A stretch of DNA of 18,952 bases from a virus (taxonomy: Duplodnaviria; Heunggongvirae; Uroviricota; Caudoviricetes): the IMG/VR virus record IMGVR_UViG_2563366990_000003, positions 1-18,952 of that record; one strand, written 5' to 3'. Shown one piece after another: positions 13,526-18,952 of this stretch (positions are counted from its first letter, which is position 1; each line of letters begins with the position of its first letter). Made by a program: the position numbers and the translations under genes. The notes under the pieces are model-generated. The model was not told the origin of the DNA and searched no databases. It was given only the letters and a program-made list of their open reading frames with translations.

Positions 13526-13777
13526 GGCCCACCCCACCAGGAGGACCCGCAAAATGATAATGGTTATCATTTGTAATGTAGTCCGGTTTCTTCCACCATC
13601 GCACCGGACCAGCGACCATGAGGGGACAACGCCGCGCTCCGTTAACGCGGTAAACCCCGGTGTGTATCGTTTTTGATTATCCCCGCACACTCGCGCAGAG
13701 GAGTCTCCCTGTCGGGCTGCGGTCTCTGTTAATACGGGAATACGGCGACAATACCGCGCCATGGATAATAAGGTCGC

Positions 13778-14025: not shown

Positions 14026-14493
14026 CTAGTTAATACACTGAGTGCGGATATATTCCTGCGCCCCTTCCAGCTGCTTCTGCATTGTCATCAACCGTTCTCT
14101 GAGGATGAAATAATCCCGTTCAGCGGTGTCTGCCAGTCGGGGGCCGGTTGCATTATCCACGCCGGAGGTGCCGGTGGCTTCACGCACGGTACCGTGGCAG
14201 GTGGCGTTGATCCGCAGGCGCTTACGACCAGCGGCAACATCAGCACGCAGAGTTTCATTTTCAGCTCTCGCATCGGCTAATTCCCTCGAGTATTTTGCAT
14301 CGAGCGCAGCAACATCGCGCTGGCGCACCTGCATATCAGTAATGGTGGCATTCGCCTGTTCCAGCTCTCTGGCTTTTTTATCGCGCTGCGCTTTGTAGGT
14401 GATGGCGTTATCGCGGTAATGATTCAGCCCCAGACTAAGCGCACCACAGGCCACCAGCAAGGCAATGATGACCACACACAGAACGCGGTTCAT
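14026..14493 (-). CDS. Rz: Rz i-spanin
   Basis: 155-aa ORF with an N-terminal TM segment ([18 protein letters not shown]) and a charged coiled-coil-like periplasmic part. Position downstream of the endolysin and the embedded Rz1 frame support the call. Confidence 0.85.
14088..14273 (-). CDS. Rz1: Rz1 o-spanin (lipoprotein), embedded in the +1 frame of Rz
   Basis: 61-aa ORF with a lipobox (LVVSAC) and a Pro-rich mature part ([27 protein letters not shown]) closely resembling lambda Rz1. ATG at 14273 confirmed. Confidence 0.82.
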
Positions 14494-14668: not shown

Positions 14669-14702
14669 AAAACCCCGCTTGCTACCAACAAACGGGGTTT
14701 TT
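14669..14702. terminator. Bidirectional intrinsic-terminator-like hairpin between the endolysin and the small ORF/Rz
   Basis: Read directly: 9-bp stem AAAACCCCG/CGGGGTTTT with a 15-nt loop, flanked by T-rich tracts on both strands. Confidence 0.4.
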
Positions 14703-14791: not shown

Positions 14792-15325
14792 TTATCTGTC
14801 GATTCCCCAGCACGCCAGCGCGCTCTCCTGGTCACGACGGGATATCTGGCCGTAACAGTTGTTTGAGCGGATACGGCAGTCTCTGCCACCGTCCTTAATC
14901 CACCAGCGAATCGCTTCACACGCTCCCCTGCGATCGCCTGCATTAATTCGTTTATAAAACGTCGACGGGAAACACTTACCGGGGCCAATGTTATACGGGC
15001 AGAATGACGCAATACCCGCTTTCTGGGGTTCGGTCAGTGGCACTCTGATGTTTTTCTCCACCCATGCCAGCGCCTTATCCCGTTCGATAGCGTTAACCCG
15101 GTCGCATTTTTCCTTCGACAGCTTCATGCCAGGAATCACAGGCTTACCATCCACCATGATGGCACCCCGGCAGATGGTCCAGATACCCGCACCATCACGG
15201 TATGCCGTGGTGTGGTTGCCTTCCTTTTCATCCAGAAACTGGTCGAGGATTTCAGGCGCAGAAGCCCCTGCGGCAATCAGCGCCAGAACGGCAGCTGACA
15301 GGCCGTATTTGATTTTTGCGTTCAT
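14792..15325 (-). CDS. R: SAR endolysin (phage lysozyme, GH24 / T4-lysozyme fold)
   Basis: 177-aa ORF. The N-terminus has a weakly hydrophobic Gly/Ala-rich SAR-like segment (YGLSAAVLALIAAGASAPE). The catalytic E-x8-D-x5-T triad is present (EGNHTTAYRDGAGIWT). It matches my recollection of the R lysozyme of Shiga-toxin-type lambdoid phages. ATG at 15325. Confidence 0.9.
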   Translation of the reverse strand: MNAKIKYGLSAAVLALIAAGASAPEILDQFLDEKEGNHTTAYRDGAGIWTICRGAIMVDGKPVIPGMKLSKEKCDRVNAIERDKALAWVEKNIRVPLTEPQKAGIASFCPYNIGPGKCFPSTFYKRINAGDRRGACEAIRWWIKDGGRDCRIRSNNCYGQISRRDQESALACWGIDR

Positions 15326-15450: not shown

Positions 15451-15771
15451 ATGAATAATAATGACAACAATTTACGCAAAGAGTTTTTGCAGATAATGAA
15501 CGAAAATGTTAAATCAGAATTAAAAGCGCTTATCCCGGATAATAGCGAAACCACTCAGGCCATTCTCTCAGAGCCTTACGGCATGCTTTCAACAGAAACA
15601 CTGGATATCATTATCACCACATTAACACCATTGATGCTTCAGCATCTGAAGCACAACATTAACAAATGGTTTAATGACGAACTCAGTCACCCGGGTTGTT
15701 CATGGGATAAAAACTTTGCCTGTCTGCAAAAAAAACGGCTCTTCAATAAACTATCGCTTAAGTTCAGATAA
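15451..15771 (+). CDS. Hypothetical 106-aa protein, plus strand, convergent with and overlapping the 3' end of the 385-aa gene
   Basis: It is the only plausible plus-strand gene in the window. It is AT-rich, Asn/Lys/Leu-rich and predicted helical. ATG at 15451, weak RBS. No family recognised. Confidence 0.5.
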   Translation: MNNNDNNLRKEFLQIMNENVKSELKALIPDNSETTQAILSEPYGMLSTETLDIIITTLTPLMLQHLKHNINKWFNDELSHPGCSWDKNFACLQKKRLFNKLSLKFR

Positions 15772-16921
15772 CCGCCCCAAACCGCCCTTTCAGATAAGTC
15801 AGCCCCGGCTGGATCCAATCATCTGGCTCAGTCTTAAAGGGTGGAGTATTGAAATCACGAAGAACGGTCTCCCGCACAACTGCATCCTTATCAGCACCAC
15901 TGACCAGCGCTTCAATCTCAGCGGCTACCTGCAGATACCCCATGCAACGACCAATGCGCTTCATTAGTCCCTGCTTTTTATTGTTCTTCAGGTAATCAAT
16001 GGCAAATTCAATGAGCGTCTCACAGTGCTGGTGCGATGGCGGTGTTACTTTTCCATTTTCTGAGATAGTTATTTTCCCGTCATCACCGGATACAACAAAG
16101 GATGGCCGGTTACACTCCCATTCCTGGTCACTGAAATCTACCTTCAGAAAGAACGGCCCGATTTTTGTAAAGGAACCTTTGGCATCGTTCCCCTCATGAC
16201 GGAATACACCGACTCCGGCGGTAACGAGTTCACCGGTTATCGTATTTGTGTCTATTTCGATGCTTACGGGAATGGAACAGAGGATACCTGGACTTCTCTC
16301 AACATCATGTTTGATGGCCTCATGAAAGCCACCAAAAGAATGAGCAATGAAACAATCACTGGCGAGATGCGTCCCCTTTAAAAAATTATCCAGAATCTCA
16401 CTATTTGCAGAGCGCTCTCTGTTTTTTTGAATACGGAAACACTCTGCGAGATTTCTGCTCATCACTTTCCGGCAATAATCGTAAAACGCCGCGAACTGCT
16501 CATCACGGCGTTTTTTTTCACCTTCGGAAGGGATCTGCACCGACAGTTTTTTATTCAGTTCAACGACGCTGTTCTCCAGTTTTTCAATGCGTGATTCGAT
16601 ATCATCTTTTTCTGACTGTATCGTGTTATATGCATTGTTAATTTGTATGGTATACCGCTCTTCTGAACAGAGGCGCTTTTCCCGTGACTGTTCATCCCCT
16701 TCACATAAAGCGGCAGCAATATCCATGAAAAACTGCTTCGCCTTCTTTTTCGCCTCAGCTTCGTAAAATTCCAGCGTGGCACCTTCAGTACGGTCAAGAC
16801 TAATCGCCACATATGGCGACAACAACGACGGCTGCCCGGCAATTTCCAGTGCCACAGTAACAGTAATCTTATCCGGGTAATTATTTATCCCTTTAACAAC
16901 CAGTTCGTATTGTTTATTCAT
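15764..16921 (-). CDS. Hypothetical 385-aa protein inserted between holin and endolysin; function unknown
   Basis: ATG at 16921 lies 3 nt after the holin stop, with GGGGAGAG as RBS. The ORF is long and uninterrupted in AT-rich DNA. Architecture by eye: N-terminal domain, a central charged heptad-like segment (about aa 85-170) and a C-terminal Cys/His-containing domain. No signal peptide or TM segment. No family recognised. Confidence 0.8.
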   Translation of the reverse strand: MNKQYELVVKGINNYPDKITVTVALEIAGQPSLLSPYVAISLDRTEGATLEFYEAEAKKKAKQFFMDIAAALCEGDEQSREKRLCSEERYTIQINNAYNTIQSEKDDIESRIEKLENSVVELNKKLSVQIPSEGEKKRRDEQFAAFYDYCRKVMSRNLAECFRIQKNRERSANSEILDNFLKGTHLASDCFIAHSFGGFHEAIKHDVERSPGILCSIPVSIEIDTNTITGELVTAGVGVFRHEGNDAKGSFTKIGPFFLKVDFSDQEWECNRPSFVVSGDDGKITISENGKVTPPSHQHCETLIEFAIDYLKNNKKQGLMKRIGRCMGYLQVAAEIEALVSGADKDAVVRETVLRDFNTPPFKTEPDDWIQPGLTYLKGRFGAVI

Positions 16922-16924
16922 CGT

Positions 16925-17140
16925 CTACTCTCCCCGTGCCGCCTTGCGCCGGTCCTCTTTAATTTTGAAATACAGGTTTGTCAGGTACGTCAGCAACCCA
17001 AACAGCAGACTCCCCAGCACACCTATTGCCGCCCACTGAGACGGGGAAACCCTGTCCAGCAACTGCAGGAACCAGTAGCCCGTTCCCACCGCTGACGTGG
17101 TGTATGACACACCTGTTGTGATTTTTTCCATCTGGTACAT
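16925..17140 (-). CDS. S: Class II holin of the phage 21 S21 pinholin family, with dual-start motif
   Basis: 71-aa product [71 protein letters not shown], near-colinear with S21 as I recall it. It has two TM segments and Met1/Met4 starts (antiholin/holin). GGAG RBS. The ORF-track start at 17194 is a GTG further upstream. Confidence 0.9.
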
Positions 17141-17216
17141 ACCCCGTCTCCCGCAATCCGGAAGCTCACAACAATATAAAGACCACCGGCACACACCGAT
17201 GGTCCCTTGCGCATGC

Positions 17217-17462
17217 TTACATCATCATGTCGCTGTCAGGTGTGGGTTCACCGCCATCTGAAGCACTCCCGTCACCCGCAATGCCTTCCGGCTCCGGAAC
17301 TGCCGGTGCGCCCAGCAGTTCATCCAGAATGGCATCCACTTCTGCATCAAGACGCGACTCAAGGTTCTGGCGGAGTTTCTGTTTCAGTGCGCTCAGGACT
17401 TCTTCAGAGCGCAGGACTTCCTTCACTGCTTCAGCAGTGACCAGGGATGTGATTTCTGACAT
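17217..17462 (-). CDS. Hypothetical acidic 81-aa protein upstream of the holin
   Basis: ATG at 17462, following the 60-aa ORF stop by 26 nt. Product [51 protein letters not shown]... is helical and acidic with non-random composition. The RBS is weak. Confidence 0.5.
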
Positions 17463-17487: not shown

Positions 17488-17670
17488 TTAAGGAGTAACG
17501 GGCTCTTCGGGTTTGCTTCCGGCTGACTGACTGGCGCTGATTTTCTCAGCGGCCCTTTTATCAATCTGCCTGCGCCAGAAATCGCGCACGGCCCTGTACC
17601 CACCCGAAAGAAGATACAGCACACAGACCGCCGTACAGAAGTACAGCATCACCTGATGAATAAATGTCAT
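17488..17670 (-). CDS. Hypothetical 60-aa small membrane protein
   Basis: ATG at 17670. One predicted TM segment (VMLYFCTAVCVLYLLSGGY) followed by a basic/polar tail. Same strand and operon context as the lysis genes. Confidence 0.45.
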   Translation of the reverse strand: MTFIHQVMLYFCTAVCVLYLLSGGYRAVRDFWRRQIDKRAAEKISASQSAGSKPEEPVTP

Positions 17671-17770
17671 AATTTCTTACCGTTATGGTTGACTAAGTAA
17701 ACAGTTTTCATTTAAAAATGCCGATGACGAAAGTGGTAGTATCTTTCCTTGATTCTCCATGAATCTCACA

Positions 17771-17806
17771 CCGCCAGAGGTCTCAGGCAACTGGCGGCTT
17801 TTTTTA
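17771..17806 (+). terminator. Plus-strand intrinsic-terminator-like hairpin, abutting the stop of the large minus-strand ORF
   Basis: Read directly: 7-bp GC-rich stem CCGCCAG/CTGGCGG with a 13-nt loop, followed by C plus T7 on the plus strand only. The minus strand has no U-tract after the stem. Confidence 0.4.
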
Positions 17807-18952
17807 TCATGCCGCGGCATCCGCGTTGTTCACTTCCACCTTCACACTGTCAATCAGCAGCGTATATGTCGCCGCCTTTGATATGCCTGTCAGTTGCAGT
17901 TTGTCCGCCGCCCCTGATGCCGGAGATTTCACCAGTGTGAACGGTGTACCCCGTTTCTCATCCAGTACCGGCGTCACCTGAATGCTGTTGTTTCCGGCAA
18001 ACTCAAAAGCCAGTGTGTGCCATCCGTTATCAAAGACCCCGAACGTATCCAGCTTCGCATTCTGCTTCTTGTGGTACATCGCGTTCAGGTTCGTCGCATC
18101 CGTCTGCAGGAAGAAGGACATCAGCATGTCGTTGCCTTCCTCTGACAGCGTCACTCCCTCCGGCAGGGACGACAACTGCCAGTAAATACCCAGGGCAAAC
18201 TGATTCGGCACCAGTGCGCCCGGCACCTTAAACCGCACGCTCACACGTCCGCCTTTCTTCAGCAACTCTGCCCCCTGCCCGGCGGCATCATGCTCCAGAA
18301 ACCAGATGTGGCTTTCCGGTTTGTTCAGTTGCAGGGCCTTACCACCGGTGGCACCCTCATCACTGACCACGGCCTCAGCGATGTTTTTATCAACACTGTC
18401 TCCGCTCGCCGGTTTGTGATAATAGCGCCAGCCCTGTGATGCCAGGTCTTCACCGGACGCCAGCAGACTCATCAGGGTTCGGTTACTGACCGGGGCTTCC
18501 GGCTCTCTCTCCGGGCCTTCACCGGAAGGTCCGGTGGGCTTCACCGTATCAGGCTGTTTTCCGGTAATGAATTCAGCGGTTCTCCCGGCATGCACCAGAA
18601 TCGCCGTTGCCAGACGGTCGGAAATAATCCCACGGCGAGCCCATGAACTGAAATGGCTGGCCCTGTCCACAGATGTCCAGGTCTTCTGGTCATTACGCCA
18701 CTTTGAACCGTAATAACCGACGGCTTCCAGGTCCGGGTCTTCTGCCGGGTCATTGGTCTGCACATTCGCACCATTCTCATCCGTCATTAACGGTACAAAG
18801 AAAATGTTCTGCGACTCCTTACCCTTATACCCTCCGTATACTGATGCATACCCTTCCGCATGACGCTGCTTCCAGAAATACGTTGTGTCCCCGCAAACCC
18901 ACGGTACCGCTGATGCGCTGCCTCCTGTGCTCTGTGATGCCTGACCGGCAAG
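17807..18952 (-). CDS. C-terminal 381 codons of a larger late-operon protein truncated at the window edge; possibly NanS-p-like
   Basis: The frame is open from 18952 down to TGA at 17807-17809; the ORF track shows only the part from the first in-frame ATG at 18787. Large ORFs in this position upstream of the holin in Shiga-toxin-type prophages are NanS-p-like sialate O-acetylesterases as I recall. I cannot confirm this by sequence recognition. Confidence 0.6.
   Translation of the reverse strand, partial: LAGQASQSTGGSASAVPWVCGDTTYFWKQRHAEGYASVYGGYKGKESQNIFFVPLMTDENGANVQTNDPAEDPDLEAVGYYGSKWRNDQKTWTSVDRASHFSSWARRGIISDRLATAILVHAGRTAEFITGKQPDTVKPTGPSGEGPEREPEAPVSNRTLMSLLASGEDLASQGWRYYHKPASGDSVDKNIAEAVVSDEGATGGKALQLNKPESHIWFLEHDAAGQGAELLKKGGRVSVRFKVPGALVPNQFALGIYWQLSSLPEGVTLSEEGNDMLMSFFLQTDATNLNAMYHKKQNAKLDTFGVFDNGWHTLAFEFAGNNSIQVTPVLDEKRGTPFTLVKSPASGAADKLQLTGISKAATYTLLIDSVKVEVNNADAAA

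Follow-up and report, generated by a model that had tools for sequence, protein, structure and literature searches.

Genes and features at the locus

The window, by which is meant the whole stretch of 18,952 nt that was analysed, represents the late region of a lambdoid prophage of the Stx type, which is read from the minus strand (Table 1). All genes called from Rz (14026) to the esterase lie on this strand, and homologues of the esterase ORF are annotated either as SASA family carbohydrate esterases or as DUF6645 proteins. A gap of 136 nt extends from the esterase stop codon to the DUF1378 start codon; the matching phage and genome records hold no annotation inside it. The gap is wholly filled by the element described here. 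Its -35 hexamer is at a distance of 19 nt from the start codon of DUF1378, and a single nucleotide (A17806) separates the end of its U-tract from the stop codon of the minus-strand esterase ORF, which reads TCA (17807-17809) on the plus strand, the complement of TGA. The 700 nt around the element match 306 phage records, mostly those of Stx2a-, Stx1a-, and Stx2c-converting phages, and a 301-nt stretch has matches in 513 of 5,426 complete E. coli genomes.

Table 1. Features of the esterase-DUF1378 gap and of the neighbouring late region (window coordinates)
Feature	Position	Strand	Basis
-35 element TTGACT	17689..17694	+	Sequence; TTGAC invariant in 20 window-type variants
-10 candidate TAAAAAT	17713..17719	+	Weak by consensus; flanking TTTCATT conserved
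Predicted transcription start, A of conserved ACGAAAG	17727	+	Homology with the 933W Cappable-seq start
Predicted 79-nt small RNA	17727..17805	+	Predicted start to end of U-tract
Conserved 5' end ACGAAAG	17727..17733	+	CGAAAG invariant and A nearly invariant in 20 variants
Variable U/C-rich body	17734..17752	+	14% invariant columns, six representative subtypes
Invariant UUCUCCAU, candidate seed, anti-Shine-Dalgarno-like	17753..17760	+	Same in 20/20 variants; putative seed role
Terminator hairpin (arms 17771-17777 and 17791-17797, loop 17778-17790)	17771..17797	+	Sequence, fold, variants
U7 tract, termination signal, likely Hfq-binding 3' end	17799..17805	+	Sequence; Hfq binding predicted
NanS-p-like esterase ORF, 3' part, DUF6645 C-terminal domain (C-terminus ends at 17807)	17807..18952	-	Pfam, E = 4e-46
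DUF1378 gene, back-to-back with the sRNA promoter	17488..17670	-	Pfam, E = 4e-37
DUF826	17217-17462	-	Pfam
P21-type holin	16925-17194	-	Pfam
DUF1327-containing protein	15764-16921	-	Pfam
Lysozyme	14792-15325	-	Pfam
Rz	14026-14493	-	Pfam

A predicted one-way terminator and a promoter-like element

A preliminary description of this DNA placed a hairpin followed by a T7 run, oriented to act on the plus strand only, directly against the stop of the large minus-strand ORF, and both the sequence and a strict scan agree with that assignment. The stem, in which CCGCCAG pairs with CTGGCGG, is a perfect 7 bp with six GC pairs; it closes a 13-nt loop and is followed by C17798 and T7. The hairpin has a predicted energy of -15.6 kcal/mol on the plus strand and of -14.0 kcal/mol when the same segment is folded as minus-strand RNA. 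On the minus strand, A7 precedes the hairpin and UGUGAGAUUC follows it; as there is no U-tract on that side, termination is expected in the plus direction only. In the custom scan, a site had to have a perfectly paired stem of 7 bp or more that included four or more GC pairs, a loop of 3-15 nt, and a run of at least six T no more than 2 nt away; on both strands of the window, 17771-17805 was the only site that it returned, whereas the chance expectation is a mean of 0.01 sites (100 dinucleotide shuffles). The built-in terminator scan missed the hairpin because it allows loops of 8 nt at most. Hairpin and U7 together have the form of an intrinsic (Rho-independent) terminator, that is, a GC-rich hairpin and then a U-tract, on one strand.

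Upstream of the hairpin, the sequence confirms TTGACT, previously proposed as a -35-like hexamer, which matches the consensus at five of six positions. The accompanying A/T-rich -10 had been called imperfect, and it is weak: it may be read as TAAAAA (17713-17718), with an 18-nt spacer from TTGACT, or as AAAAAT (17714-17719), with a 19-nt spacer, and either reading agrees with the consensus at four of six positions. TAAAAA is without the conserved T at -7 of the -10 element. In a sigma-70 scan of the window, no promoter was called at TTGACT.

A strong hairpin with T7 that works in the plus orientation only, next to a weak -10 that the sigma-70 scan passed over, would suit a reading in which the site is nothing but a one-way terminator or insulator: it would keep stray plus-strand transcripts from entering the esterase and toxin region in antisense, TTGACT would be incidental, and any short RNA would be a functionless by-product. 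The preliminary description had likewise considered a terminator that protects the late operon from convergent transcription. However, such a bare protective terminator is disfavoured because no plus-strand gene that would need to be terminated lies upstream in the called region, where all genes from Rz to the esterase have the minus orientation. Conservation of the promoter and the start site is a second argument against it. In particular, the -35 element, the region around +1, and an internal 8-mer keep a constant spacing to the terminator, a primary 5' end has been mapped 79 nt upstream of it in prophage 933W, and the same layout at this site gives abundant Hfq-bound RNAs in EPEC and Sakai (see below). 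It is therefore judged very unlikely that the site is an insulator only.

A transcription start mapped in prophage 933W

Cappable-seq captures primary 5'-triphosphate ends. The closest well-studied variant of the element lies in prophage 933W of EDL933 (NZ_CP008957.1; esterase gene end 1358609, DUF1378 start 1358744), where the promoter consists of TTGACA, a 17-nt spacer, and TAAAAA. A prediction based on this promoter, made beforehand, placed the start at approx. 1358691 on the minus strand. A Cappable-seq study of EDL933 (CP008957.1) lists an antisense start at 1358689(-) (Zehentner et al. 2023, PMC10469882, Table S6). This start was seen in stationary cultures grown in M9 or in LB with malic acid, i.e., in two of eight conditions, under a calling rule by which a start must occur in all three replicates (PMC10469882). 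The same dataset contains approx. 20,000 starts in 5.5 Mb, among them some ten further starts that are antisense within this esterase gene, and thousands of non-canonical starts are reported (PMC10469882). Even at the higher local density, the chance that a start would fall within 2 nt of the predicted position on the right strand is roughly 1-3%.

The mapped start is the A of ACGAAAG; TAAAAA precedes it by 7 nt, and its distance to the last U is 79 nt. This start also accounts for the conservation of ACGAAAG, which would form the 5' end of the RNA. Transferred to the window, the start corresponds to 17727, from which an RNA of 79 nt would extend to 17805. The window differs from 933W in that the last base of its -35 element is T instead of A, in one extra spacer base, and in a different discriminator. 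The earlier suggestion of an 80-90-nt plus-strand transcript from TTGACT to T7 is thus supported, with a predicted length of 79 nt, by the 933W start together with the islands of conservation, the layout shared by ten sequence types, and the position of PasC and EcOnc52, all of which are described below. As a side observation, the stationary-phase signal of the 933W start fits what has been reported for the small RNAs HnrS and StxS.

Conservation among variants at the locus

IMG/VR was scanned with a pattern that combines the U-tract with the esterase 3' end, which gave 120 loci; duplicates were removed and the remainder typed. The window type is defined by the stem CCGCCAG/CUGGCGG and comprises five subtypes, including the window's own and that of 933W and Sp5. 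Further types at the locus are those of PasC, EcOnc52, and PasA-like elements, with stems based on GCCAG.../...CUGGC, and there are two intermediate types (L024 and L111). In each of the ten sequence types, TTGAC(A/T) precedes the end of the U-tract by 100-132 nt, and the hairpin is followed by at least seven T, whereas the stem sequences differ; TTGACA stands at the equivalent place in all types other than that of the window. A TTGAC hexamer is not significant by itself; what is significant is that its fixed distance to the terminator is conserved.

Among 20 distinct window-type variants, the conserved parts are TTGAC, AAC.G.TTTCATT with an A-run, CGAAAG, TTCTCCAT, and the stem arms. No base of the 5' arm CCGCCAG differs among the 20, and the only change in the 3' arm affects its first C, in a single variant (L009); TGGCGG is constant throughout. 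The bases between the -10 and ACGAAAG (the discriminator), the RNA body, and the hairpin loop are variable. In six representatives, the share of invariant columns is 0% in the discriminator and 14% in the body but 83% in the -35 element, 86% in ACGAAAG, and 100% in TTCTCCAT, with 62-79% in the flanking coding regions; values for the stem in these six are distorted by misalignment, and the alignment of 20 variants serves as the reference for it. As read from the alignments, the conserved islands coincide with parts of a plus-strand unit of promoter, RNA, and terminator.

The preliminary description named conservation and covariation of the hairpin as a check, and the outcome is divided. Near-invariance of the arms bears the hairpin out, and so do changes across types: when 12 representatives drawn from all types are compared, bases pair in 91.7% of the stem cells, as against 24-53% in slid controls, and three stem pairs show compensatory changes (CG to AU, CG to UA, and GC to AU). 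Inside the window-type lineage, by contrast, no covariation was found, as the stem hardly varies.

The pattern of conservation bears on two further readings. In the first, the features serve the late mRNA of the minus strand: the hairpin, placed after the esterase gene, would be a 3' stabiliser or processing site, and a short ORF before DUF1378 would begin with ATGGAGAA, which is complementary to TTCTCCAT. The fold of the hairpin on the minus strand (-14.0 kcal/mol, as given above) is in keeping with this, as is a minus-strand ORF of 25 amino acids (17762-17685) that begins at an invariant ATG GAG and has Shine-Dalgarno-like bases supplied by the 3' arm of the hairpin. However, this mini-ORF, 25 amino acids long here, has only 4 in the 933W type and 14 in the type represented by L006, so that there is no conserved protein. 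Moreover, T7 is always on the plus-strand side in the ten types, an A-run upstream of the hairpin is useless to a minus-strand RNA, and the conserved TTGAC and ACGAAAG, the latter at the mapped plus-strand start, are left unexplained. A role confined to the late mRNA is accordingly considered highly improbable.

The second reading is that of low-level, pervasive antisense transcription without a regulatory role, in which conservation would reflect recent common ancestry. Several observations accord with it: the window-type variants are closely related (mean column identity across the 20 is 86%), the -10 is weak, the 933W start appeared in two of eight conditions in a study with thousands of non-canonical starts, and a search of the window's late genes found no target. 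Common ancestry would, however, leave the patchiness unexplained, i.e., the low values in discriminator and body set against those of the -35 element, the +1 region, and TTCTCCAT, the near-invariant stem arms, and the intermediate values in the flanking coding sequence. In addition, unrelated sequence types keep the promoter-hairpin-U7 layout at the site, and RNAs of other types at this site are abundant and Hfq-dependent. Pervasive transcription is for these reasons regarded as unlikely. It is most likely that the hairpin and the promoter-like hexamer form a compact small RNA (sRNA) gene of approx. 79 nt.

Fold and coding potential of the predicted RNA

The predicted 79-nt RNA has a minimum free energy of -23.3 kcal/mol (z = -2.7 versus shuffles). 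A 5' hairpin that uses GAAAG is predicted in all five subtypes, in registers that differ; in the modelled structure for the window, a 5' stem-loop may arise from pairing between ACGAAAG and CUUUC (17743-17747). CCAU of the UUCUCCAU motif is unpaired or in a loop in four of the five predicted subtype folds. A second internal hairpin around UUCUCCAU, along with the GAAAG/CUUUC hairpin at the 5' end, was not retained as a conserved structure: both come from single-sequence folds with differing registers, and RNAalifold supports the terminator only.

A coding function was also considered and set aside. A plus-strand ORF of 14 codons (17718-17762) begins before the predicted transcript does and has no equivalent in the 933W type, and the plus-strand ORFs inside the transcript are without a Shine-Dalgarno sequence or a stop codon.

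Comparison with PasA, PasC, and EcOnc52

RNAs of this architecture are known from other prophages. Five prophage sRNAs of EPEC E2348/69 were identified by RIL-seq, confirmed by Northern blot, and shown to be Hfq-dependent (Pearl Mizrahi et al. 2021, PMC8550237). PasC (NC_011601.1, 1290909-1290832, minus strand) is 79 nt long, and PasA (743499-743415 of the same record, minus strand) is 85 nt long and has a minor form of 236 nt that ends at 743264 (PMC8550237, Table S6). In NC_011601.1, the genes for SASA-family esterases end at 1290830 at the PasC locus and at 743265 at the PasA locus; hence, PasC and the minor form of PasA converge on the esterase stop, at a distance of 1-2 nt. The sequences of both comprise TTGACA, an A-rich -10-like stretch, a hairpin, and U7. 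EcOnc51 and EcOnc52 are named as their EHEC homologues (PMC8550237, Table S6). EcOnc52 was detected by Hfq-CRAC as a 78-nt peak at 1181998-1182075(-), which has a Rho-independent terminator (Tree et al. 2014, PMC4104026). In prophage Sp4 of Sakai, this peak brackets a unit that runs from a TTGACA/AAAAAT promoter to U7 and abuts the stop of esterase ECs_1088; the placement assumes that the coordinates of NC_002695.1 and NC_002695.2 are the same in Sp4, which the fit supports. According to a recent preprint, pasA and pasC have the sialic acid esterase gene on one side and the operon for holin and lysozyme on the other (Zhu, Shabalina and Storz 2026).

The element of the window likewise has the esterase on one side and the lysis cassette on the other, runs opposite to the late operon, and shares with the PasA/PasC group a size of approx. 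80 nt and a U-tract of at least seven; the terminator is present in the sequence, and the length of 79 nt is predicted from the 933W start. PasC, in E2348/69 prophage PP5, resembles it in layout, as PasC is 79 nt long, faces the late genes, has its hairpin and U7 1-2 nt from the homologous esterase stop, and is preceded by TTGACA approx. 113 nt from the end of its U-tract. The body of the RNA is unrelated, however, and the stem of PasC is GCCAGCG/CGCUGGC in place of CCGCCAG/CUGGCGG. Furthermore, the neighbour of PasC in PP5 is an IS element instead of DUF1378, and PasC is backed by Northern, Hfq, and RIL-seq evidence, whereas the element of the window is a prediction from sequence. EcOnc52 and an identical second unit in E2348/69 prophage PP2 also abut the esterase stop and are antisense to the late genes, but EcOnc52 has another body and another stem sequence. 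The gap that separates the esterase from the lysis cassette is also the site of PasA and EcOnc51, which have the same orientation and are Hfq-dependent RNAs of 84-85 nt with a terminator and U7; PasA in E2348/69 lies approx. 150 nt from the esterase stop, whereas the element of the window abuts it. The proposed seed of PasA overlaps its terminator stem.

At the level of sequence, the relationship is much less clear. Direct alignment to PasA and PasC is weak, and sequence similarity between PasA and the window element is not detectable. An nhmmer profile built from 20 PasA/PasC/EcOnc52-type sequences gave no match at 17720-17806, and a covariance model of 14 PasA/PasC-group sequences found nothing in the window; on the 933W variant, the covariance model yielded a match to the terminator only (15.9 bits, E = 0.63). 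The 933W stem, CC-GCCAGCG...CGCUGGC-GG, contains the stem of PasC, and the intermediate type L111 combines a window-like promoter and the UUCUCCA motif with a PasC-like stem. As judged from these sequences, the stems of L111 and 933W hint at mosaic descent. The shared GCCAG/CTGGC core is nevertheless weak evidence, as it also occurs in an unrelated terminator downstream of Q: the same covariance model matches, approx. 250 nt downstream of Q in 933W, a terminator with GCCAGCC...GGCUGGC-U6, which is probably tR'. Because the alignment is weak, the profile search gave no match, and the covariance model is marginal, no claim of homology to PasA or PasC is made; the element is a positional and architectural counterpart of these RNAs, with sequence homology unproven. 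These comparisons suggest that the esterase-DUF1378 gap holds a diverged, differently sequenced counterpart of known prophage sRNAs, most likely an unnamed member of a known sort of prophage sRNA gene rather than a novel class of element.

Comparison with other known RNAs

In the window, Rfam gave no match at the gathering threshold, and none to RF02702 or RF02703 at E values up to 10. A sensitive Rfam scan produced only terminator-shaped matches at chance level, such as NsiR1 with 21.8 bits against a gathering score of 39. AsxR and AgvB (RF02703 and RF02702) are comparable in that they are short prophage RNAs antisense to the late operon that end in a terminator; they bind Hfq and consist of a variable 5' part and a conserved 3' part. 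In contrast to the window element, they are 51-60 nt long and are encoded on the opposite flank of the esterase gene; AsxR is located between stx2B and that gene, 282 bp 3' of stx2B. Identity with AsxR or AgvB was rejected on the grounds of the missing Rfam match and the position of the window element on the far side of the esterase gene. HnrS (EcOnc10-12) and StxS are sRNAs of EHEC prophage late regions that accumulate in stationary phase and target host genes. HnrS, of 66 nt, lies downstream of Rz; homology of the window with that region stops just before HnrS, and identity with HnrS was likewise dismissed, as the site is different and the HnrS sequence is absent from the window. StxS arises from the late promoter PR' with terminator tR' and is on the sense strand.

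The OOP RNA of phage lambda is a 77-nt transcript with its own promoter and an intrinsic terminator, which converges on the 3' end of its neighbour and acts as a cis-antisense RNA on cII through RNase III. It thus provides a working model for a possible cis action of the window element. OOP differs from the window element in its locus (cII/O), in its unrelated sequence, and in that it overlaps the 3' end of its target's coding region, whereas the RNA of the window would stop 1 nt short of the esterase stop codon and cover the intergenic gap only.

In the literature searched, no name or description of the element was found, its only appearance being one row in a genome-wide table of start sites; a paper on small genes of Sakai and a paper on NanS-p diversity do not mention it. 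The Hfq-CRAC list of Tree et al. (PMC4104026, Table S2) has no peak at the equivalent gap in Sakai prophage Sp5, which lies at 1272086-1272219 on the minus strand of NC_002695.2 (coordinates in NC_002695.1 are lower by approx. 142); this absence is uninformative because the list excluded peaks within 100 nt of annotated features. In the ncRNA tables for EDL933 (Neuhaus 2017), nothing was listed at approximate, guessed NC_002655 coordinates.

Proposed function and significance

The explanation favoured here, and considered fairly probable, is that the gap holds an independent plus-strand sRNA gene for a transcript of approx. 79 nt, whose product would probably be an Hfq-type, trans-acting RNA and, in addition, fully antisense to the late mRNA. 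Of the alternatives offered in the preliminary description, a small antisense RNA is thus preferred, with the refinement that the known RNAs at this site act mainly in trans via Hfq; by analogy with them, the label 'antisense RNA' probably captures only part of the function. Transcription would proceed from a sigma-70-type promoter (TTGACT, a spacer of 18-19 nt, and TAAAAAT), start at approx. 17727, and end at 17805 at the one-way terminator. By analogy with PasC, PasA, and EcOnc52, the RNA would probably be made from the resting prophage, most likely in stationary phase. Hfq would bind through the terminator, the U7 tail, and the U/C-rich body, and the exposed, invariant UUCUCCAU region, which resembles an anti-Shine-Dalgarno sequence, would serve for base-pairing with mRNAs in trans. 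Among the translation start regions of 25 late genes in the window, no convincing trans target was found, with no z better than -2.0, and on the minus strand of the window, ATGGAGAA occurs at the cis site only.

The predicted RNA matches the late mRNA in perfect complementarity over a stretch that extends from the esterase stop to approx. 56 nt before the DUF1378 start codon. Because this complementarity to the transcript between the esterase and the lysis-proximal genes is full, a cis action after induction is conceivable, which could take the form of an RNA duplex cleaved by RNase III or of transcriptional collision. Alternatively, the sRNA itself may be silenced after induction by collision with late transcription.

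A further-reaching proposal, put forward tentatively and with rather low confidence, is that the window-type element represents a distinct sRNA family present in most Stx2a-type phages, including 933W. By means of the UUCUCCAU seed, complementarity to the late transcript, or both, such a family might tune the late operon after induction (toxin, esterase, and the timing of lysis) or, in the lysogen, might reprogramme host genes. The toxin that underlies severe EHEC disease is carried mainly by Stx2a phages, and the late-region small RNAs StxS, AsxR, AgvB, and HnrS are already known to rewire host metabolism and virulence. A survey by blastn and cmscan assigned Pas genes to only 43 phage genomes (Zhu et al. 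2026); if the proposal is true, phages scored there as being without Pas genes would carry a diverged counterpart at the same site. Moreover, if the RNA is functional, an added regulator would lie directly between the toxin and esterase genes and the lysis genes, and the site would be a conserved slot in which sRNA cargo is exchanged between phage lineages.

Small RNA-Like Units and Stem Variation Beside the Esterase Gene

In the E2348/69 prophage PP2, the esterase gene is followed by two promoter-terminator units in tandem, namely PasA and a second unit that adjoins the stop codon and is identical to EcOnc52 (see the table below). Because the 3' end of the 'minor 236-nt PasA' coincides with the terminator of this second unit, the latter may be an independent small RNA gene. 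In one IMG/VR contig, a covariance model derived from PasA/PasC-type RNAs gave a weak full-length match (15.4 bits, E = 0.78) on the side of the esterase gene away from this site, which may represent another antisense sRNA-like unit.

Among the variants seen, a 933W-type variant is the only one that disrupts the stem of the terminator hairpin; the substitution in its 3' arm costs the stem one base pair.

On the strand opposite the predicted sRNA gene, a mini-ORF begins at an invariant ATG GAG, which is the complement of UUCUCCAU, and the 3' arm of the hairpin provides SD-like bases for it. The length of this mini-ORF differs between types: the window codes for 25 aa, 933W-type sequences for 4 aa and the type represented by the IMG/VR locus L006 for 14 aa.

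Positions of the additional units, variants, hairpins and reading frames
Feature	Position	Strand	Location or remark
Second unit, abutting stop codon	L002:2768-2875	minus	E2348/69 prophage PP2
EcOnc52 unit	L005:3011-3109		Sakai prophage Sp4
Covariance-model match	L018:2619-2716	plus	IMG/VR contig
933W-type variant, C-to-A in stem 3' arm (CGATGGCGG)	L009:4448-4591		2 IMG/VR loci
Mini-ORF	window 17685-17762	minus	opposite sRNA gene
13-bp hairpin, then T-rich stretch	window 17178-17207	minus	between DUF826 stop codon and holin start region
385-aa ORF	window 15764-16921	minus	holin-lysozyme interval
15-bp palindromic hairpin AAAACCCCG...CGGGGTTTT	window 14669-14701		A4/T4 flanking both sides
Sp9-like segment	window 13582-13759		downstream of Rz in Sp9

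Other Features of the Late Region

The Sp9-like segment (178 nt) shares 94% identity with the stretch that follows Rz in the Sakai prophage Sp9. This similarity ends just short of the HnrS terminator; thus, HnrS is absent from the window prophage. The palindromic hairpin sits within the 298-nt gap between the lysozyme gene and Rz and has the appearance of either a bidirectional terminator or the end of another small RNA. In the ORF between holin and lysozyme, the DUF1327 match is confined to the first 83 residues. The ORF at the equivalent position in Sp9 is just 345 nt long, whereas that of the window encodes 385 aa; its C-terminal approx. 300 aa are thus an extension relative to the Sp9 ORF.
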